Assembly: GCF_000010625.1 (NCBI RefSeq)
Contig: NC_010296.1
Span: forward strand, 480,001 to 512,000
Direction of reading: 5' to 3'
Origin: Microcystis aeruginosa NIES-843
GTDB taxonomy: Bacteria > Cyanobacteriota > Cyanobacteriia > Cyanobacteriales > Microcystaceae
DNA: 32,000 nucleotides
Shown: piece by piece, positions 4,511 through 28,465 of the stretch
How the letters are laid out: every line of letters starts with the position of its first letter
How positions within the stretch are numbered: the stretch's first letter is position 1
Notes under the pieces: generated by a model
The model's input: the letters and a program-made list of their open reading frames with translations, nothing else
Database searches by the model: none
What the model was told of the DNA's origin: nothing
Position numbers and translations under genes: made by a program

Positions 4511-4562
4511 TTTTAAAGGAAAAAGTAAAAAGGAAAAAAGGCAACAGTGATCAATTAAATAT

Positions 4563-4707
4563 GGTTCTTCGTTACTTGGCATGGTTCGATCGGATGGCAT
4601 AAATCGACTAAATTCTTATCTGGCAAAAGACTTAATTGATTAGTTCGTTCTAGAGGGAAAACAATTGACAAATCCCTGATAACCCCGTCCATTGCATAAC
4701 ACGAACC
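4563..4707. mobile_element. MITE-like dispersed repeat (family also at 28280-28457)
   Basis: About 145 bp sharing ggttcttcgttacttgg...ggcataaatcgactaaat...aaaacaattgacaaa...ccgtccattgcata.cac.aacc with 28280-28457. The ends are imperfectly inverted (GGTTCTTCGTTA / GGTTCGTGTTA). Confidence 0.5.
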
Positions 4708-7564: not shown

Positions 7565-7593
7565 TTTAAGTCTTTTTGAAAGAGGCTTTATTT

Positions 7594-7829
7594 AGGGTTT
7601 GCTGAAAAAGTTTGTTGGTGGGGTTAGGAGTCAGGAGTCGGTCGTCAGTAGCCGGTCGTCGGGAGTTTCAGGCTTTGTTGCCCTCTCTTTTTTGTACCAA
7701 CCCATGTACTATAATAAGGATAATGCCAGGTTTTTGATGGTCCCAATCCGATTTTTTGGCACTAACATCGGATTTTAACAGGTCAAAAGCCTTATTTTAA
7801 AAGGGTTTTACCATTATTCAGCAAGCCCT
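7594..7829. mobile_element. 236-bp MITE with AGGGYTTGCTGAA termini (same terminal family as 21749-22754 and 26119-27117)
   Basis: The left end is agggtttgctgaaaaagttt. The reverse complement of the right end is agggcttgctgaataatgg. These termini match the ends of the two 1-kb intron-bearing elements, but the interior differs. Confidence 0.6.
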
Positions 7830-8236
7830 AAATAGGCTAAAAAAGTCTCTAACATCCCTCTAGATTGATTATCTGGCATCATCCACACACCGAATTTTAT
7901 CCCCGATTCTAGAGTCATAATTAATCCCGCTGCTGGTAAATTTTGAGGTAAGCTAGGTATATTTGGTAAACAGGCATTATATAAACTTTTCCAACGATTA
8001 TCAGGTTCTTCGTCCGCATCTATGATAATTCCTAAATGAGTTAGTCCGTTAGGAGTTTTTAGTTGCGTAGAGATATATTTAGGTTTTAGTAAATTTTCAA
8101 CACCATCACAATTTATGATATTCAATGGTTCTTCCCCTCTATTCCAAGTAACTCCATTTGCTGCCATTAATTGGGGAATAACTCTCAATTCCTCTGCACC
8201 TTCCACTAATAACTTTTTTGTCTCTATTTTAGGCAT
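7814..8236 (-). CDS. TOPRIM-like small protein (DUF3226/DUF4276/DUF4435-like signature), 3'-truncated by MITE
   Basis: LLVEGAEE (the conserved Glu) and IIIDADEE (DxD) fit a TOPRIM-type acidic pattern, and GVWMMPDNQSRGMLETF resembles DUF3226 as I recall it. The start lies 2 nt after the ATPase stop. The last five codons (LGLAE) and the stop are encoded by the MITE terminus. Confidence 0.5.
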   Translation of the reverse strand: MPKIETKKLLVEGAEELRVIPQLMAANGVTWNRGEEPLNIINCDGVENLLKPKYISTQLKTPNGLTHLGIIIDADEEPDNRWKSLYNACLPNIPSLPQNLPAAGLIMTLESGIKFGVWMMPDNQSRGMLETFLAYLGLAE

Positions 8237-8238
8237 TG

Positions 8239-9390
8239 TTACCGCACCTCAAGATTACTTGTAGCAGCAATAACAATTTCTTCTGGATCAAAGATTACAG
8301 ATTGGCTTTTTTCCCTATCTATCCTTTGAATAGTAATCTCGTTATCGGTAATTTTTTCTTCGGTAATTAATTCGGCTAAACTTTGCCAACAATCGCGGCT
8401 GTGAGTGGTGGCAAATACCTGAATATTGAGTTTTTTGGCGGTTTCCCAGACTACTTTCCACATATCAGTCATGACAGTAAAATGCAATCCGCTATCAATT
8501 TCATCAACTAATAAAATTCCATTTTTAAGATTAACCATTGCTAAAACTAATCCTAACATTCGCCAAAATCCATCGCCTAAACTGCCAATAGGTATAGGTT
8601 GATCATGATTTTTAATTTTGATTAAAAACCCACCTCTAACACCTAGGTTATTTGAAGTTAAATACTTGCCAGAAACAACACTGGCTATTCTTTCAATTTT
8701 TGGCTCAATAATTTTCAAAGATTCAATAATTAAATCTTCTAAAGGAGAGAGAACAATGTTATCAAAAAGTGCTGCCATATCAGAACTTGTTAGAGAAAAT
8801 GGTGTTAAGAACTTCAATTCAATTTGATTATCAATACCTATTTTATGGGAAATTCTGCTTAAACTAGCTATTCTTCTTATAGAATCTCTGGCAAGAGTAC
8901 CGTTGGCAAGAAGTTCCATTTCAATAGGTTTTTGTGATTGACTCCATCTAATACTTAAAAGAAGTTTATTCCATTCCTCATCGTCGAAAATATTATCATT
9001 ATTTAAATCATCATTTTTGTCTGAAAATAAAGATAGTTGTATAGGAATACTTTTAACAGAAATAGTAACACTTTCCTGATGTGATTCCCTAGAACCAATG
9101 ATAATAATTTCCTGACTTGGGACGATTTCATGCCCAGGAAATAAATGACAAATTTCAAAAACTTTAGTGCGACCAGCTAACTTATTTTCCAACCAAGCGA
9201 ACTCGCCTCTATAGCTAATAGTTTCAAGAAATATATCTATATTATTCTGAGCATACAAAAACTGAATCGCTTCTAAAATAGAAGTTTTACCGCTATTATT
9301 TTTACCCACTAAGAGATTAATTCGACCAAGATTGGCCATCTCAAAATTTTGAAAACCGCGAAAGCCTTCAATTTTTAGGGATTGTAACAT
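8239..9390 (-). CDS. ABC/AAA_21-type ATPase (OLD/RecF-like ATPase fold)
   Basis: Walker A GKNNSGKTS follows the LKIEGFRGF N-terminus. Walker B is ILLVDEIDSGLH and an H-loop-like FATTHS is present. The gene is visibly AT-rich relative to its flanks. Confidence 0.8.
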   Translation of the reverse strand: MLQSLKIEGFRGFQNFEMANLGRINLLVGKNNSGKTSILEAIQFLYAQNNIDIFLETISYRGEFAWLENKLAGRTKVFEICHLFPGHEIVPSQEIIIIGSRESHQESVTISVKSIPIQLSLFSDKNDDLNNDNIFDDEEWNKLLLSIRWSQSQKPIEMELLANGTLARDSIRRIASLSRISHKIGIDNQIELKFLTPFSLTSSDMAALFDNIVLSPLEDLIIESLKIIEPKIERIASVVSGKYLTSNNLGVRGGFLIKIKNHDQPIPIGSLGDGFWRMLGLVLAMVNLKNGILLVDEIDSGLHFTVMTDMWKVVWETAKKLNIQVFATTHSRDCWQSLAELITEEKITDNEITIQRIDREKSQSVIFDPEEIVIAATSNLEVR

Positions 9391-9607
9391 GAGTGATTAC
9401 CCCGGATTTTCAGTTATTAAATCTAGTTTATCTCAACCCCAGTAGCCAAGACCACCGACGAGACTAGATAGCGCAGACTCACCTTACCATCGCGGATTAA
9501 CTCAATCAGCGCTTTTAGTCCCTTTTCACCTTTCGAGCATTATAGCTGGTTTCGGGGCAGAAAACCAGCAAAAACATGACTACAGAGGGAATCGCTGACT
9601 CTAGAGA

Positions 9608-9907
9608 TTAATGACAATAAATTCCTAGCTGCCGATATAGTTCAACCTCATCCTTGCAAACAGTTAAGGTTTTTTGTTCTTCAATATTCTGAATAGCTTG
9701 TTGAGTTTTTTGGTTAAAATCGCTTATCGTATAATTACCTTCTGCAATTCGTCTTTCTTTTTCCTCTAATTCAAGACAAAGTTCCATAGCTTCTTGAATA
9801 TTGCTCAAAGCTTCTTCGAGATGATGTCCTTCATTAATACAACCGGGGAGAGAAGGAATAGAAAGATTATAATCTCTTTCCTCGCTTGGTTCTAAAATAA
9901 AATTCAC
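9608..9907 (-). CDS. HicB-like antitoxin domain protein without adjacent hicA
   Basis: The N-terminus FILEPSEERDYNLSIPSLPGCINEGHHLEEALSNIQEAMELCLE matches the UPF0150/HicB pattern (LPGC...EEA...EA). No HicA-like ORF is present on either side. Confidence 0.55.
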   Translation of the reverse strand: MNFILEPSEERDYNLSIPSLPGCINEGHHLEEALSNIQEAMELCLELEEKERRIAEGNYTISDFNQKTQQAIQNIEEQKTLTVCKDEVELYRQLGIYCH

Positions 9908-10057: not shown

Positions 10058-10130
10058 TTTTGGGGGGTTCTACCCCCCAAACCCCCCGTTGGGGTCGTGG
10101 CGCCGCCCCCAAACCCCCCGCGCATTAGCT
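10058..10130. repeat. G/C-run palindromic repeat cluster
   Basis: ttttggggggttctaccccccaaaa forms a 9-10 bp hairpin. It is followed by ccccccgttggggtcgtggcgccgcccccaaacccccc. Confidence 0.7.
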
Positions 10131-10254: not shown

Positions 10255-10749
10255 TTACTCAAATTCTTCTATTTGCGATCGCACTAATTCTAGGGGAAGT
10301 TTTAAAACTCTAGCAATTTGTTCGATAGTTAATCCTTCTTTGATTAATTCGGGAATGGTTTCTAATTTAGCTTGTTGATAAATTTTAGATGAGGGTAATT
10401 CACTGTTCTCTTTTCCAGTACAAAAATTACCGCTATTGATTTGTATAACGTCTTTAATATTACTAGAGTTAGAGAAATTAGAATAACAATATCTTTGTAA
10501 ACTCGATTTAATGTTAGCCTTACTGACTTCCTGTCCTAATATTTCTGATAAGGTTTTCCATAATTTACCTGCTGTTTCCTTGATATATTTCTGAGAACGA
10601 TGATTTTTTTGAGCGATTTCGGCGTATTTTTGATGATTGACGACTCCCTCTAAGATTTCATGCTGAAGATCGTCTAAATGTTCTCCTGTATGGGAGAAAA
10701 CAAGCTCATCAATAGTTATTATAAAAGATTGAATATCAAATGAGTTCAT
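10255..10749 (-). CDS. stand-alone HTH protein (sigma-70 region 4/LuxR-like N-terminal module plus a second C-terminal HTH)
   Basis: LDDLQHEILEGVVNHQKYAEIAQKNHRSQKYIKETAGKLWKTLSEILGQEVSKANIKSSLQR resembles the N-terminal module of many large cyanobacterial STAND/WD40/vWA-MoxR-associated proteins. The C-terminal part GLTIEQIARVLKLPLELVRSQI is also HTH-like. Confidence 0.45.
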   Translation of the reverse strand: MNSFDIQSFIITIDELVFSHTGEHLDDLQHEILEGVVNHQKYAEIAQKNHRSQKYIKETAGKLWKTLSEILGQEVSKANIKSSLQRYCYSNFSNSSNIKDVIQINSGNFCTGKENSELPSSKIYQQAKLETIPELIKEGLTIEQIARVLKLPLELVRSQIEEFE

Positions 10750-10911: not shown

Positions 10912-11529
10912 ATGAAGTTTCTTCGTTTTTGCGCCCAGTTCTCTGTACCTATTGCTACGGCAGGGATAACAACCTGTATTGTTAGTTTACCAAGTCAGGC
11001 CGTTGAACTTGTATTTTCAAGTCCTGGTGTGATCAAAGGTATAAATGGAGTGTCTTTTACTTTGCCAAGTACGGGTATCTCAAGAACCTACAATGTTATT
11101 CTTGAACGAGGAACGGTAAATGATATCTATGGTACACCTCCACTATTTGATGTGTTTACTGAAGAAGATGCTTTAGCTGCAATGAATGCTTCTGCTCAGG
11201 GTATAAACTTTTATATTACTAATTTATCTGAAAATCTGTCATTTGAATCTTTAGGAACAGATGTATTTTATATTCCATATTTTACGGATTCCGTTAACGT
11301 TATTGCAAGTTCTAGTAAAAGAAAAGAAGAATCACCAGGACTTATAGAGGTAGGCTTTATAGATTTACCTGTTGATGTTGAGGTAGTTTATACACGCCTT
11401 ATACAAGTTCCCGAACCCACTTCAACTTTAGGACTCTTTTCTCTAGGAATACTCGGTGCTGGTGCAACCATAAAACGCCAAGTTAAACGCCATCATTCTA
11501 TCGAAAAAGAAACCACCAAAATAGGCTAA
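10912..11529 (+). CDS. PEP-CTERM sorting-domain secreted protein
   Basis: An N-terminal signal-like segment is present. The C-terminus VPEPTSTLGLFSLGILGAGATIKRQVKR is the PEP motif, a hydrophobic helix and a basic tail. Confidence 0.75.
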   Translation: MKFLRFCAQFSVPIATAGITTCIVSLPSQAVELVFSSPGVIKGINGVSFTLPSTGISRTYNVILERGTVNDIYGTPPLFDVFTEEDALAAMNASAQGINFYITNLSENLSFESLGTDVFYIPYFTDSVNVIASSSKRKEESPGLIEVGFIDLPVDVEVVYTRLIQVPEPTSTLGLFSLGILGAGATIKRQVKRHHSIEKETTKIG

Positions 11530-21676: not shown

Positions 21677-21748
21677 GAGAGTTCCTCCTTCAATCCCTTG
21701 AGCCGTGCTTTGATAACTTCGACTTCCTGTTGTGGTGTTTTGATAGTT
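21673..21748 (-). pseudogene. 3' remnant (about 24 codons) of a RelE/Gp49-like toxin gene, cut by the 1-kb element
   Basis: The minus-strand translation is ...[25 protein letters not shown]. The KTPxxE(I/V)E..A..R tail is typical of Gp49/HigB-2-type toxins. The sequence upstream of codon L is the terminus of the inserted element. Confidence 0.5.
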
Positions 21749-22754
21749 AGGGCTGGCTGAATAAATCTAAAAACCTTGCTGGATAAGACTTTTAGACTTT
21801 GTTGAAATCCAAAAGTACCAGATATGGGAGTGATCAGGGGTAAATTCAGGTACTTTTTCCCTGAAAATTAGGTAATTGACCCCCTCAAAATCGGTAAAAC
21901 CCCACACCCGTTACAGTAGAGCAGGAAGTCGCCTTCCCACCCCCTGCTTCAAAACCGGACTTACGACTTTCGCCGTATCCGGCTCCTGAGTAACTAGGCT
22001 ACTGTCATTAGTAGAATAATAATGGGAATTATTATTTCCTTGTCTATTCAACCCTCTTGGCTGTATCCCCACCAGACAAGATTGTTGGTTTTAGGGCGTA
22101 TATGACCGTTGATTGTTGCTTAGACTTCCTAGTTACCCGTCCTTTGTCAGCATATCTTTGATATTACTCAAAGCCTTGGCTTTTAAGGACATCCTCTCCC
22201 TCTATTGACTTGCGGATGGTTTCCTACTGCCCCGAACGGGCAGAGTCAATCAGGGTTACTTCGTTCCCTATAACCATTGGTTGAACCCTTAGGATGATAC
22301 TGTCCACAACAGAGTAACGGGAATGCCTTACTGATAGTGGTATGAGCTATCAGCCCCAACTCTGTTAACTTTTGTTTCGAGCCTGTCAGCCTTTTGGCTC
22401 GTGGGTGTTGACGATGGTTAATTCGTATCTTCGCCCCAGGGCTATCCATAGGTTCTGGCTCAACGGGTTTCTGATTTAGGCTATCAGATACCGCTTTTTT
22501 TTCCTCGCTCACTACCTCAGATGTACCAAGTCTAAAGCAGCAGGAAATGCCGTCACTCTAGGCATCTAGAGGACAGGACTAAGGTTATTACTAACCCGCA
22601 CCTGTAGGGTTATAAAGTTATCAAGGTACTACATTTACCAAGCGGCTAATCCTCTAAACGTCTTACTGTCTAGTTTCTAGCCAACGAATCGCACCACACC
22701 CTACACCCTACACCCTATACCCTGCCCCTAGGAAAAACTTTTTCAGCAGACCCT
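21749..22754 (-). mobile_element. 1006-bp TIR-bounded element carrying an ORF-less group II intron (copy A)
   Basis: The imperfect termini are agggctggctgaataaatc and, as the reverse complement of the right end, agggtctgctgaaaaagtt. The element is about 99 percent identical over its interior to 26119-27117. Confidence 0.7.
21916..22694 (-). ncRNA. ORF-less group II intron ribozyme, copy A (3' boundary +/- 15 nt)
   Basis: On the minus strand the 5' end is GTGCGATTCG, starting at 22694. Domain V is GAGCCGGAUACGGCGAAAGUCGUAAGUCCGGUUU (21985-21952), folding as 9 bp, an AA bulge, 5 bp and a GAAA loop, with the AGC triad. It is followed by a GCGA-capped hairpin (candidate domain VI) ending ...CUCUAC. 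No RT ORF is present. Confidence 0.75.
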
Positions 22755-23106
22755 AAGTACAGTTGGCTAAAACCGCGCGCACTTGTCGAGAATGCCTCTA
22801 CTTTCTCAGGAGAAATTCTGTCTAAGCAAGTAATCTCGGTGAACCAAGAATCCCCAAGACTTTAGGCTGGGGAGTGTTAAAAAATTGTTATGGCTAGGGG
22901 AGCTTTAAGATTGCTTCGAGGGCTTTGGTGATACAATGAGCCGTTAACTAGCTATCTCTCGGTGGCATGGAGAGCCAAATTGTCAGGAGGTCGAAGCGTG
23001 AAAACTCGGTTGCGTTGGTTTTGGGTGGCTTTAGGGGCATTTCTTGCCATTATTGGCGAGGAATTCTTGAGAAAGCTGCTGGCACTCTCTCTGTGGCGTT
23101 TTTCTG

Positions 23107-25331: not shown

Positions 25332-26118
25332 TCCACCTCTGTGGCTTTTTCCATTGAACTTGCATTCATGACGATCGCCAAGTTCCTTTCTCCTTCTAGT
25401 TGAGATATTTTCGCTCTGAATACCGCTACCCAAACCGTTTTCTCTTTATCTAGATTTAGGGTGATTTTCTCCCAATCCTTTTCTGATAGGCTTTTTGCTA
25501 GTTGCTCAAGCTGGATTGTTTCTTCCACACCCCCTTCTTTTTCAATAATTACTTTTCGATTTTTTGCCAATCCTCCTAAGTATTTTAGCTTTCTTTCTTC
25601 CAGGGCTTTGAGAAAATTTGTGTTGTTGCCATAACCAGCATCTATTAAGACGATTTTCGGTCGATAGCCTCTGGTTAAGCTCCGGTCAATTAAATCTATC
25701 GCTATCTCTGGTTTCTTCTTAAATTCTTTGTCTTCTTTCCCCTCGGCTAAGGAACTAGCCGGTTGATAAATTTCCCTGTCTAGGGGGACACTTTTTTTGC
25801 CGTCGTAGAGATGAGTAGTGACGGCGACTATTCCGTTGTCTGTCTTGCCAATTTCTCCCAGGTACTGCCTGCCAACTCCGGCGGTCAGATTGCCACTTTT
25901 TCGATGTCCTGAGTCATCGACAATCAGGGAAAATCCTCGGGGGATTTGCGTCTGGCGGCATTGGTTCATCACTTGCAACCGACATTCATTCACCTGACGG
26001 TCTGACCAGGGAGATTCGGTCAAAAAGTGATGTAATCGGTTATAAACTACTCCGACGGCATTATTGGCAATTTGAGTGAGGTTTTTCCTCTCACTTTCCC
26101 CTAATAATCCTCCTAAAT
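25332..26118 (-). pseudogene. central fragment of the outer IS701 transposase gene
   Basis: Near-identical to 24352-25141 of the intact copy. Its 5' continuation lies at 27118-27227 beyond the 1-kb insert, and its 3' continuation lies at 23458-23963. Confidence 0.8.
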
Positions 26119-27117
26119 AGGGCTGGCTGAATAAATCTAAAAACCTTGTTGGATAAGACTTTTGGACTTTTTTCCCCTCAAAAAGTACCAGATATGGGAG
26201 TGATCAGGGGTAAATTCAGGGACTTTTTCCCTGAAAATTAGGTAATTGACCCCCTCAAAATCGGTAAAACCCCACACCCGTTACAGTAGAGCAGGAAGTC
26301 GCCTTCCCACCCCCTGCTTCAAAACCGGACTTACGACTTTCGCCGTATCCGGCTCCTGAGTAACTAGGCTACTGTCATTAGTAGAATAATAATGGGAATT
26401 ATTATTTCCTTGTCTATTCAACCCTCTTGGCTGTATCCCCACCAGACAAGATTGTTGGTTTTAGGGCGTATATGACCGTTGATTGTTGCTTAGACTTCCT
26501 AGTTACCCGTCCTTTGTCAGCATATCTTTGATATTACTCAAAGCCTTGGCTTTTAAGGACATCCTCTCCCTCTATTGACTTGCGGATGGTTTCCTACTGC
26601 CCCGAACGGGCAGAGTCAATCAGGGTTACTTCGTTCCCTATAACCATTGGTTGAACCATTAGGATGATACTGTCCACAACAGAGCAACGGGAATGCCTTA
26701 CTGATAGTGGTGTAAGCTATCAGCCCCAACTCTGTTAACTTTTGTTTCGAGCCTGTCAGCCTTTTGGCTCGTGGGTGTTGACGATGGTTAATTCGTATCT
26801 TCGCCCCAGGGCTATCCATAAGTTCTGGCTCAACGGGTTTCTGATTTAGGCTATCAGATACCGCTTTTTTTTCCTCGCTCACTACCTCAGATGTACCAAG
26901 TCTAAAGCAGCAGGAAATGCCGTCACTCTAGGCATCTAGAGGACAGGACTAAGGTTATTACTAACCCGCACCTGTAGGGTTATAAAGTTATCAAGGTACT
27001 ACATTTACCAAGCGGCTAATCCTCTAAACGTCTTACTGTCTAGTTTCTAGCCAACGAATCGCACCACACCCCACACCCTACACCCTGCCCCTAGGAAAAA
27101 CTTTTTCAGCAGACCCT
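26119..27117 (-). mobile_element. 999-bp TIR-bounded element carrying an ORF-less group II intron (copy B)
   Basis: It is inserted between cctcctaaat and aaatattgtctg of the transposase gene, and AAAT is duplicated at 26115-26118 and 27118-27121. The intact copy reads cctcctaaatattgtctg at 25136-25153. Confidence 0.8.
26286..27064 (-). ncRNA. ORF-less group II intron ribozyme, copy B (3' boundary +/- 15 nt)
   Basis: It has the same GTGCGATTCG 5' end (27064) and an identical domain V (26355-26322). By hand alignment I count five nucleotide differences from copy A. Confidence 0.75.
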
Positions 27118-27308
27118 AAATATTGTCTGAAGCCGTTTTTTTGCGCTTCGTTTTTGAAGCAATTGTCAAACCGCCGACACCATCGGTCAAAGCAGGGAGG
27201 CATCGCAGCTGGGGTTGTCTCTTTCATCGCTGATCTTTCAACGTAAAGTGCTTATTCTATAACAATTATACTCTATTATACTCTTGTTGATCGTTTAAGT
27301 CCCACTAT

Positions 27309-28279
27309 GAAGCATCAGGATATGATGATAAAATATCGATTCGTTTTCGAGAACCAGGTATTTACCAGATCACCATCGACAAATTTGTTGTCCCTCAAGA
27401 AGCTGTTGTTGAAGAAATTGAGTTTAAGTTAAATAAATTACACAAGGGTGAATTAGGCGAAGATATTTATCTAAAAACTCTTTTTATTGCTGACCGTCCT
27501 GAAGTTACTATCAAAAATTTTAGGATCAAAGTTCCTGACAGTCAAAACAAAGTGATCGACAGTAGAGAACTGACGAAACAAGGTTTAATTAACTATTTTA
27601 CTCCGATTTTGAATTTTGAGCCAGAGTAAGAATATCAAGTTCCTTTTGATGTTAATAAAAATACTTGGAAAGCCGAAACTAAAGCCAATATTAAGGGAGC
27701 ATCTCACTTACGCGATAAGTAATTATACTTAGCCTAAAAGCCACTCTTAATCGTGTCTTGGAACGAAATAGAGGCTTTTAAAGACTGCGTACATGGAGAA
27801 TTAAAACAAGAATTACCCTCGAAAAGCCTATTTTTCCACTAAGTATTTATGCTCATTGCAAAGGTGAGATGCTCCCAATATTAAGGATAGAGGAAATGCA
27901 GATGATTACTTAGATCTTAGTCAATTTAAAACAGATATCAAAGGCGCTTACAGTCGAAGTAAAAAAACTCCTGCTAAAATTTATGCCTCAATTGTTGAAA
28001 ATGATAATTTAGAAATAGATAACAAAAAAACAGGGATTAAAGAATTAGCAATTAACTATTACTTTCACTATCCCCATAGCAATTGGTACGACCACGAAGG
28101 ATTTAATAATCATGAAGGAGATTGGGAAGGAATCACGGTCTTTTTACGGAAGGATCGGGATGGCTACTACTATCCTTGTCGAGTTGCTTTTGGCGAACAC
28201 ATTTTCTTGGTGAGTGAGTTTGCTTCCGATGGGGGAGAAATAATTGAATGGACAAGATTAGTTAACAATAATAATATTC
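27309..28279 (+). pseudogene. 3' segments of the disrupted Vps62/DUF946-like gene
   Basis: The frame continues from 23457 as EASGYDDKISIRF...NFEPE. An in-frame TAA follows at 27627-27629, and the same frame then continues as EYQVPFDVNKNTWKAETKANIK. A 182-bp MITE interrupts it, after which the frame reads DRGNADDYL...INYYFHYPHSNWYDHEGFNNHEGDWEGITVFL...LVNNNNI. The reading frame then runs into another MITE-like repeat at 28280. Confidence 0.6.
27695..27876. mobile_element. 182-bp MITE with perfect 13-bp TIRs and an 8-9 bp target duplication
   Basis: The TIRs are gggagcatctcac and gtgagatgctccc. AATATTAA is duplicated at 27687-27694 and 27877-27884. Confidence 0.85.
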
Positions 28280-28457
28280 GGCTCTTCGTTACTTGGTATG
28301 GTTCGATAGGGGGGCATAAATCGACTAAATCCTTATCTGGCAAGAGTTCTATTGATTAGTTTGTTCTAGCTCGAAAACAATTGACAAAAATCGCATCAAT
28401 GTCCTTCTCTATAAGGGTTTCATCCCTTATAACTCCGTCCATTGCATAGCACAAACC
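28280..28457. mobile_element. second copy of the MITE-like repeat seen at 4563-4707
   Basis: It shares the termini and core with 4563-4707 and has an extra internal hairpin (ataagggtttcatcccttat). Confidence 0.5.
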
Positions 28458-28465
28458 GAAGAACC

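Follow-up and report, generated by a model that had tools for sequence, protein, structure and literature searches.

A truncated copy of the two-gene PDC-M38/DUF3226 ATPase–TOPRIM module in Microcystis aeruginosa NIES-843, the intact form of which is a candidate split OLD-type defence system

The stretch of 32,000 nucleotides analyzed here, referred to as the window, covers positions 480,001 to 512,000 of the forward strand of contig NC_010296.1 from Microcystis aeruginosa NIES-843 (NCBI RefSeq assembly GCF_000010625.1). It carries on its minus strand two adjoining open reading frames (ORFs), named A (8239–9390, 383 aa) and B (7814–8236, 140 aa). The stop codon of A was located at 8241–8239 and the ATG of B at 8236, leaving a spacer of 2 nt between them. 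The A protein harbors a Walker A motif (VGKNNSGKTS, residues 28–37), a Walker B/D-loop motif (LLVDEIDSGLH, residues 293–303) and an H-loop (ATTHS, residues 327–331), and the B protein carries the motifs LLVEGAEE, with Glu12, and IIIDADEE, with Asp73 and Asp75. A preliminary description of this DNA, made from the letters alone, had reported the two ORFs, their separation by 2 nt and their motifs, all of which were recovered at the same positions, and had read them as an ATP-binding cassette (ABC) ATPase with a separately encoded TOPRIM-type protein, a reading with which both the profiles and the predicted folds agree. The family is already catalogued (Pfam DUF3226, PADLOC PDC-M38) and the window locus is a degenerate member of it. 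The locus is probably best understood as what is left, after decay, of a conserved module of two genes; in its intact form this module is a defence candidate composed of a split OLD-type ATPase and nuclease. The features on which the analysis turns are the following:

8239–9390, minus strand: gene A, an intact ABC (Rad50/SMC-like, AAA_15/AAA_21) ATPase of PDC-M38A, based on profiles, model and Foldseek.
7814–8236, minus strand: gene B′, a truncated OLD-type TOPRIM protein of DUF3226/PDC-M38B, based on profiles, the alignment with alleles and the end of DNA homology.
7589–7834, no strand assigned: an element of 246 bp resembling a miniature inverted-repeat transposable element (MITE), with 21-nt terminal inverted repeats TATTTAGGGYTTGCTGAA and an inner terminus that is the breakpoint of B, based on the inverted repeat and the copies of the terminus.
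7828–7834, minus strand: the junction, 7 nt (TATTTAG) common to codons 134–136 of B and the MITE terminus, with no homology to intact B beyond it.
9391–9607, minus strand: the upstream region of the operon, which holds a 69-bp remnant of a DUF212 gene at 9455–9523.

The A protein matches the PADLOC profile PDC-M38A (PDLC04611) from end to end (E = 1.2e-88, residues 1–383 on profile positions 1–383 of 383). It also matches AbiLi (PDLC02336) over its whole length, with E = 1.2e-53 and residues 1–383 on profile positions 1–340 of 340, and the AriA models of PADLOC-DB, likewise in full length, with E = 1.8e-37. Weaker matches in the same database were observed to GajA, NsnB, HEC-01A (~1e-15), mad3 (1.3e-12) and PtuA, and the Pfam matches are AAA_15 and AAA_21. 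The AlphaFold model of A, constructed from 68 homologues (pLDDT 82.7, pTM 0.84), displays a Rad50/SMC-type ABC head, and the best Foldseek matches in the PDB were PtuA, Rad50, SMC heads and GajA, all with a probability of 1.0. In this monomer model a beta-rich insert at about residues 60–190 includes an acidic loop that is disordered, and long coiled coils were not seen. Across the family, residues ~101–190 of A are the least conserved, and this hypervariable insert sits between Walker A and the signature motif.

The source annotations of A homologues include ‘recombination protein F’ and ‘chromosome segregation protein SMC’. RecF belongs to the ABC ATPases and a TOPRIM domain is present in RecR, and a housekeeping DNA repair module of the RecF/RecR or SMC type would also suit the housekeeping genes that often neighbor the pair. 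Such a repair module is nevertheless a very improbable explanation. The recF model TIGR00611 reaches only 43 bits on A against a cutoff of 172, and covers residues 2–46 only, while B has no RecR family match and is nearest to the OLD nucleases. The identity of the pair with RecF/RecR was rejected on the TIGR00611 score and the missing RecR match. The patchy distribution, the decay of copies and the swapping of modules within one genus, all described below, are also unlike what is seen in core repair genes.

The B protein of the window matches Pfam DUF3226 (PF11536), the family at which the preliminary description had guessed, with E = 1.1e-37 and 130.3 bits against a cutoff of 27, over profile positions 2–130 of 208. 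It matches PADLOC PDC-M38B (PDLC04624) with E = 1.7e-40 over profile positions 11–140 of 220, and the intact allele P0002 matches the same profile with 2.2e-70 over positions 11–219. In the PADLOC search that had been recommended as a check, both proteins were accordingly placed in one two-gene candidate, PDC-M38. The match of the window B to Pfam OLD-like_TOPRIM remained just below the threshold (23.0 bits against a cutoff of 23.2), and this model was touched by 49 of the 62 B family members. No match to AriB or AbiLii was found for the window B in PADLOC-DB at E ≤ 1, and sequence searches of the PDB with B alone and with the 62-sequence profile gave nothing meaningful.

The model of the intact 213-aa B allele, constructed from 62 homologues (pLDDT 84.3, pTM 0.80), revealed a TOPRIM-like alpha/beta core with strands at 7–11, 39–42, 67–73, 105–108 and 114–120, followed by a helix at 128–134 and then by four helices (141–211). 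In the Foldseek comparison with the PDB, the top matches of this model were the catalytic C-terminal regions of class 2 OLD proteins from Xanthomonas and Burkholderia (6njv, 6njw, 6njx and 6nk8), with probabilities of 0.93–0.99 and alignments that span the whole length, and the next ones were the TOPRIM domain of retron Eco2 and DnaG. AriB (8v46_D) appeared at rank 47 with a probability of 0.15, so the earlier remark that B does not resemble AriB holds for fold as well as for profile. The structural comparison of both proteins that had been proposed beforehand thereby brings the intact B nearest to the OLD catalytic regions and A nearest to PtuA, Rad50, SMC and GajA. A Foldseek search of viral structures gave no significant match.

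Residue conservation was counted in 123 B representatives with identities of 31–54%. Glu12, Asp73 and Glu130 are invariant (123/123), position 16 is acidic in 112, position 75 is D or N in 122, and position 167 is basic in every one of them, with Lys in 122 and Arg in one. The arrangement follows the TOPRIM pattern, with Glu12 after the strand 7–11 and Asp73-x-Asp75 at the end of the strand 67–73, and Gly45 (G in 91/123 and S in 27/123) is found after the strand 39–42. A local hhalign comparison placed B residues 8–75 on residues 394–455 of P2 Old with 33% identity, pairing E12 with E398, E16 with E402 and D73/D75 with D453/D455, and P2 Old depends on these four residues in vivo (PMC7049728). 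The metal-B ligands T506 and E508 and the catalytic K562 of Bp OLD come from the helical domain that follows its TOPRIM core, and without this domain both nicking and processive cleavage are abolished (PMC6755086). Glu130 of B would correspond to OLD E508 and Lys167 to OLD K562; this equivalence stays positional, mapped by position and conservation and not by superposition, because the local hhalign reached only the N-terminal 68 residues of B. The candidate catalytic residues of B are E12, D/E16, D73, D75, E130 and K167, and the intact protein is predicted from its model to be a stand-alone nuclease of ~215 aa, built like the OLD catalytic C-terminal region from a TOPRIM core and a helical domain.

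The preliminary description had suggested that B, being shorter than known TOPRIM partners, might represent a distinct subtype, and had proposed that homologous pairs be collected to learn its native length. Native B proteins have 213 aa in Microcystis, and about 207–239 aa across the 123 representatives. The closest relatives of the window B are Microcystis proteins of 213 aa with 96–98% identity, and its alignment to these alleles stops at ...FLAYL, residue 136. The blastn comparison with an intact Microcystis locus (L001) likewise revealed 95% identity from upstream of A to window position 7828, which is codon 136, and none beyond. No continuation of the B protein was found in the three downstream frames, which hold only stops and unrelated sequence, and a rescue by frameshift or readthrough was ruled out on that account. 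The breakpoint falls together with the inner one of two inverted-repeat arms of 21 nt (7589–7609 and 7814–7834, 90% complementary), which pair and bound the 246-bp element. Five copies of its terminus were detected in the window, at 7589 (+), 7817 (−), 21744 (+), 22742 (−) and 27105 (−), against 0.02 expected. The 246-bp element was also found at unrelated sites in two other Microcystis loci (L010 and L012), and it is therefore regarded as a MITE. Residues 1–136 of B are authentic, and the four codons after them (GLAE), together with the stop, are derived from the MITE terminus. The far side of the MITE holds the 3′ end of a penicillin-binding-protein gene and not the remainder of B, so B was not simply interrupted by an insertion but lost its 3′ third through a rearrangement associated with the MITE; such a rearrangement at the 246-bp MITE would have removed codons 137–213.

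The window B consequently ends before the helical domain with its four helices and retains Glu130, but it has neither Lys167 nor the hydrophobic residues L174, W176, F203, W206 and L210, which are conserved in the family. Since both of its profile matches stop at about 60% and the break lies at a MITE, the length of 140 aa reflects truncation and not a new subtype, and we regard the family assignment and the truncation as practically certain. That 140 aa could be the natural length of a separate subtype, a minimal TOPRIM partner in a functional pair, is hardly credible. The 140-aa ORF is open, it keeps Glu12, the acidic residue 16, Asp73/Asp75 and Glu130, and the same allele recurs in several metagenome contigs. 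However, the close relatives all have 213 aa, the DNA homology ends exactly where the MITE supplies the last codons and the stop, the missing part holds the invariant K167, L174 and W206, and Bp OLD is killed by deletion of its helical domain (PMC6755086). By analogy with that deletion, the truncated B would most likely be inactive or unfolded, and the window copy of the pair is very probably non-functional. The truncated protein does retain all the acidic metal ligands, which counts against a complete loss of activity, and a residual nicking or regulatory role is conceivable.

Substantial variation in the state of the pair was observed among Microcystis loci. An A protein 100% identical to that of the window adjoins the same 140-aa B in three loci (L003, L005 and L006) and an intact 213-aa B in another (L007). 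In a further locus (L004, 2604–2780) an equally identical A stands beside a B of 58 aa, which is cut at codon ~49 by a different dispersed repeat; this repeat is 88% identical to window positions 28273–28462 and 4557–4707 and is followed by a pentapeptide-repeat gene. As identical A proteins occur beside 140-aa, 58-aa and intact B proteins, the breaks must be recent and represent at least two separate events. In Cyanothece sp. PCC 7425 (L092, 7928–8997) the ATPase is split into ORFs of 135 and 176 aa and the DUF3226 gene is intact with 223 aa, so this locus is another decaying copy of the pair.

The persistence of an intact A beside differently shortened B genes might suggest that A was kept as an orphan after the loss of the nuclease for a function of its own, for instance as a decoy or as a sensor for another effector, and other AAA_15/21 ATPases do lie nearby in some genomes. 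We consider this improbable. Given how recent the breaks are, the intactness of A, and its identity with the A of an intact pair, are no sign of selection, and no second effector gene was seen beside A in the window, either in the ORF list or in the profile scan. In Cyanothece PCC 7425, moreover, it is A that is broken and B that is intact. The more plausible reading remains that the whole window module is decaying, and its upstream side has changed as well. The 69-bp remnant at 9455–9523 agrees at every position (100% identity) with a segment from within the DUF212 gene (L001, 6397–6465) that precedes the A–B pair in other Microcystis genomes, and ~326 bp separate the matching piece from the A-proximal sequence there; the spacing indicates that the window haplotype was rearranged or deleted upstream too. 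The possibility that this fragment is a dispersed repeat was rejected, as it is single-copy and syntenic in the Microcystis loci.

The terminus motif of the MITE was also observed at larger repeats in the window. Two repeats of ~1.0 kb, at 21748–22756 and 26118–27119, are 97.8% identical to each other, and the motif is located at both ends of the first and at one end of the second. Each of them contains on the minus strand a match to the Rfam group II intron RF00029 (domain V/VI; 21910–21987 and 26280–26357), with 55 bits against a gathering threshold of 40. No ORF of ≥90 aa was found inside the first repeat, and the two look like ORF-less elements of a group II intron-like or MITE-like kind.

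The exhaustive search with the B profile yielded 3,170 clusters at 50% identity, of which 790 were obtained at E ≤ 1e-30, with a typical length of 210–230 aa. A relative of B was detected in at least 595 species-level genomes, mostly from cyanobacteria, with some from cable bacteria (Desulfobulbaceae) and Planctomycetota, in a distribution that is patchy across phyla. In all 80 related loci that were examined, B is immediately preceded by an A homologue of the same orientation, and the gap between the two genes is 2 nt in 48 of these and 0–4 nt in 73. With E values of 1e-88 for A and 1e-40 for B, and with A followed by B in 80/80 loci, the pair is far beyond chance, and its intact unit can be defined as ~380 aa and ~215 aa with a gap of 2 nt. 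Plasmid copies are rare (4 of 72,556 records). Two distant ones from Gammaproteobacteria, in Plesiomonas (L090, NZ_CP027853) and Acinetobacter (L089, NZ_CP118894), retain the A–B arrangement; one of these pairs has P2-like tail genes for neighbors (for tail protein X and a VgrG/gpD-like protein), and the other is carried by a MOBQ plasmid of 14 kb, where a RelE/ParE toxin-antitoxin (TA) pair adjoins it.

A comparison of eight Microcystis operons (the window, L001 and L009–L014) revealed that the operon DNA is 93–100% identical except in two independently assorting blocks. Block 1 covers codons ~40–265 of A, which encode the ABC insert, and exists as two haplotypes with 27–58% nucleotide identity. 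Block 2 extends from codon ~347 of A to codon ~60 of B and likewise exists as two haplotypes, with 50–78% identity. All four combinations of block 1 and block 2 haplotypes occur. The variable insert of A shows the pattern expected of a recognition module under diversifying selection. Block 2 is perhaps a docking module between A and B, and it can also be explained by the simple linkage of a recombination tract.

The pair was then set against the known systems with an ATPase and a TOPRIM partner. Both window proteins match the two hidden Markov model (HMM) sets of PDC-M38 best, and gene order and strand agree with it, but the window B covers only positions 11–140 of the 220 in its profile, and PDC-M38, being itself an untested prediction, provides a name rather than a mechanism. 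Class 2 OLD proteins (Bp/Xcc OLD, 6nk8 and 6njv, and GajA of Gabija) are the best structural matches of the intact B, with a TOPRIM core and a C-terminal helical domain. The LLVEGxxE and DxD motifs of B align with E398/E402/D453/D455 of P2 Old, and A resembles the OLD N-terminus in being an ABC ATPase. Several differences were observed, however. OLD proteins carry metal-B ligands and a basic residue past the TOPRIM core, of which the window B keeps Glu130 and has lost Lys167 along with the helical domain. The ATPase and TOPRIM parts are fused in OLD classes 1–3, whereas two ORFs encode them in the window and likewise in all 80 related loci. A UvrD/PcrA-like helicase gene lies downstream in Gabija and class 2 OLD, whereas the MITE and then the penicillin-binding-protein gene follow here; the most frequent families of the 130 flanking proteins, sampled as two genes on each side of the pair at 36 loci, did not include UvrD, nor was it found in four annotated loci. 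The sequence similarity to OLD is marginal, with no PDB match by sequence, and the template-modelling (TM) scores range from 0.38 to 0.46.

AbiL of Lactococcus (AbiLi and AbiLii) has the same two-gene composition, an ABC ATPase with a partner of TOPRIM/OLD fold, and A matches AbiLi over its full length; AbiLii has been reported to superimpose on the OLD structure 6NJV (PMC13064643). Unlike AbiLii, B has no RloB-like AbiLii match, either for the window protein at E ≤ 1 or in the top-family lists of the 62 members, and AbiL is plasmid-borne in lactococci. PARIS (AriA and AriB, class 4 OLD) is again a split ABC ATPase and TOPRIM toxin, and its AriA is matched by A. In PARIS, AriA sequesters AriB until a trigger frees the AriB dimer, which cleaves tRNA-Lys (PMC11464382), and PARIS is the best mechanistic template for the DUF3226 pair. 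The differences are again considerable: AriB is a DUF4435 protein of ~35 kDa and B a DUF3226 protein of ~24 kDa; the AriB HMM is touched by only 2 of the 62 B members (E ≥ 0.004) and DUF4435 by only one (E = 0.095); AriA has coiled-coil insertions (hexameric propeller), whereas the monomer model of A has a beta-rich insert; and PARIS is often borne by phages or satellites, whereas the DUF3226 family is absent from phage collections. The links to the MADS proteins mad3 and mad4 are weak, namely the A–mad3 match given above and mad4 matches for 5 of the 62 B members (best 2.3e-5), and the other MADS genes are absent at the pair. The similarities to HEC-01 are marginal, with HEC-01A matched by A and HEC-01B by one of the 62 B members. 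A published tree of AAA15/21 ATPases annotates TOPRIM-Old, DUF4435, RloB and DUF4276 partners, and not DUF3226. An unnamed two-gene ATPase and TOPRIM system in Nostoc sp., mentioned in two publications (one of them PMC13064643) and attributed in a review to Makarova et al. 2011, may belong to the DUF3226 family. The classification in the preliminary description, a split OLD/PARIS/AbiL architecture, is in essence right; A is AbiLi-like, and B is neither AbiLii nor AriB.

By analogy with OLD, Gabija, PARIS and AbiL, the ATPase A might act as a sensor of infection or a regulator through its variable insert, and might hold or license the nuclease B. Upon a trigger, B would cut nucleic acid (DNA or tRNA) as a two-metal TOPRIM nuclease, and the damage would abort the infection. 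On balance, and judged by the same analogy, the intact pairs appear to be systems directed against phages or other mobile genetic elements. Hints in this direction come from the embedding criterion of the PDC candidates, the swapped ATPase insert, the patchy distribution and the repeated decay of copies (L004 and L092). The PDC candidates, 145 in number and untested, PDC-M38 being one of them, were defined by their embedding in BREX, DISARM or type I restriction-modification (R-M) systems (Payne et al., bioRxiv 10.1101/2024.01.29.577857).

Several observations weigh against this explanation of the pair. Neither the 50,697 phage records searched nor IMG/VR yielded a match to the A–B family, and the proteins that flank the pair in the sample of 36 loci are mostly housekeeping proteins, among them tRNA synthetases, peptidase U32 and MetH. 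The Foldseek scores of the intact B against OLD are moderate (TM 0.38–0.46, E values of 3e-3 to 2.5e-2), and the equivalences of Glu130 and Lys167 are positional. The literature search returned no publication on DUF3226 or PDC-M38, the PDC systems are explicitly described as untested (Payne et al., bioRxiv 10.1101/2024.01.29.577857), and HEC-01, a related ATPase and TOPRIM candidate, gave no protection in the only published test.

The preliminary description had set down beforehand that a lack of enrichment of such pairs near defence or mobile genes would speak against its reading, and the neighborhoods bear on this point in both ways. A minority of the 130 flanking proteins are Uma2/PDC-S03 (8–9), AriA/mad3-like ATPases (4) and a few R-M proteins, which are raw counts without a background rate, and TA genes also occur among the minority neighbors. 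The bulk is housekeeping, and the four annotated loci have the same mainly housekeeping neighborhood. The defence-island signal for the A–B pairs is thus weak, in agreement with a comment by the authors who defined the PDC systems (Payne et al., bioRxiv 10.1101/2024.01.29.577857), according to which other defence systems are found less often near PDC and HEC candidates than near those detected through enrichment. In several Nostocales (L094 and L095) the pair was observed directly downstream of alaS, which may be a preferred insertion site, and nearby genes encode Uma2, HicAB, DUF433 or another ATPase of the AAA_15/21 type.

These surroundings also raise the question of whether the module might be a TA-like cassette for addiction to or stabilisation of mobile elements, or a general stress-response nuclease, with B as the toxin and A as an ATP-dependent antitoxin or regulator. 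The behavior of PARIS is itself that of a TA system of type II (PMC13064643). The relative on the 14-kb MOBQ plasmid sits beside a RelE/ParE pair, chromosomal copies occur as solo cassettes beside HicAB, Uma2 or DUF433 genes, and the repeated loss of the B gene fits a costly toxin. We consider this explanation unlikely, though it is clearly the strongest of the alternatives. Copies on plasmids are rare (4/72,556), and the hypervariable, recombining insert of the ATPase suggests the recognition of a diversifying partner. The TA-like reading is, besides, compatible with defence, as many TA-like systems are abortive-infection systems.

A more far-reaching proposal, which is put forward tentatively and with more doubt than confidence, is that DUF3226/PDC-M38 might constitute a genuine, uncharacterised class of split OLD-type immune systems. 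Its hallmarks would be an exchangeable, beta-rich hypervariable insert that alters sensing and an exchangeable docking block made of the C-terminus of A and the N-terminus of B. The repeated inactivation in Microcystis, where two different truncations of B are found beside identical A proteins, would then represent the cost of autoimmunity caused by the nuclease. Pairs in which an ABC ATPase is combined with a TOPRIM protein, such as OLD, Gabija, PARIS and AbiL, are a major theme of bacterial immunity, and the natural allele swaps described above point to the sensing region of the ATPase. The window copy does not belong in a list of the active defence systems of this Microcystis strain. Intact homologues are a sensible experimental target, given the mosaicism of the alleles and how broad the family is.

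The pair is located in an AT-rich island, as had been noted earlier, with a GC content of 0.33–0.39 across ~7.5–11.5 kb of the window versus 0.47–0.51 on either side. Scans for promoters and terminators around the A–B operon gave results no better than shuffled sequence. TA-type genes had also been reported next to the pair, and of these one HicB-like antitoxin ORF was recovered directly upstream of A (9608–9907, minus strand, 99 aa, GTG start). It matches Pfam HicB_lk_antitox with E = 2.7e-8 over profile positions 4–53 of 123 only, no HicA partner was found among the adjoining ORFs of ≥40 aa, and the ORF is probably an orphan or a remnant. In the spacer between this ORF and the gene that follows upstream, CCCCCAAACCCCCCG was observed in two exact copies 32 nt apart (10074–10120). 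That gene, at 10255–10749 on the minus strand, encodes a protein of 164 aa with a C-terminal helix-turn-helix (HTH) of the sigma-70 region-4 type, and a 205-aa PEP-CTERM protein is encoded at 10912–11529 on the plus strand; both lie inside the AT-rich stretch. The HTH and PEP-CTERM genes are both missing from the otherwise collinear metagenome haplotype L003, which indicates that the content of the AT-rich island varies between strains.

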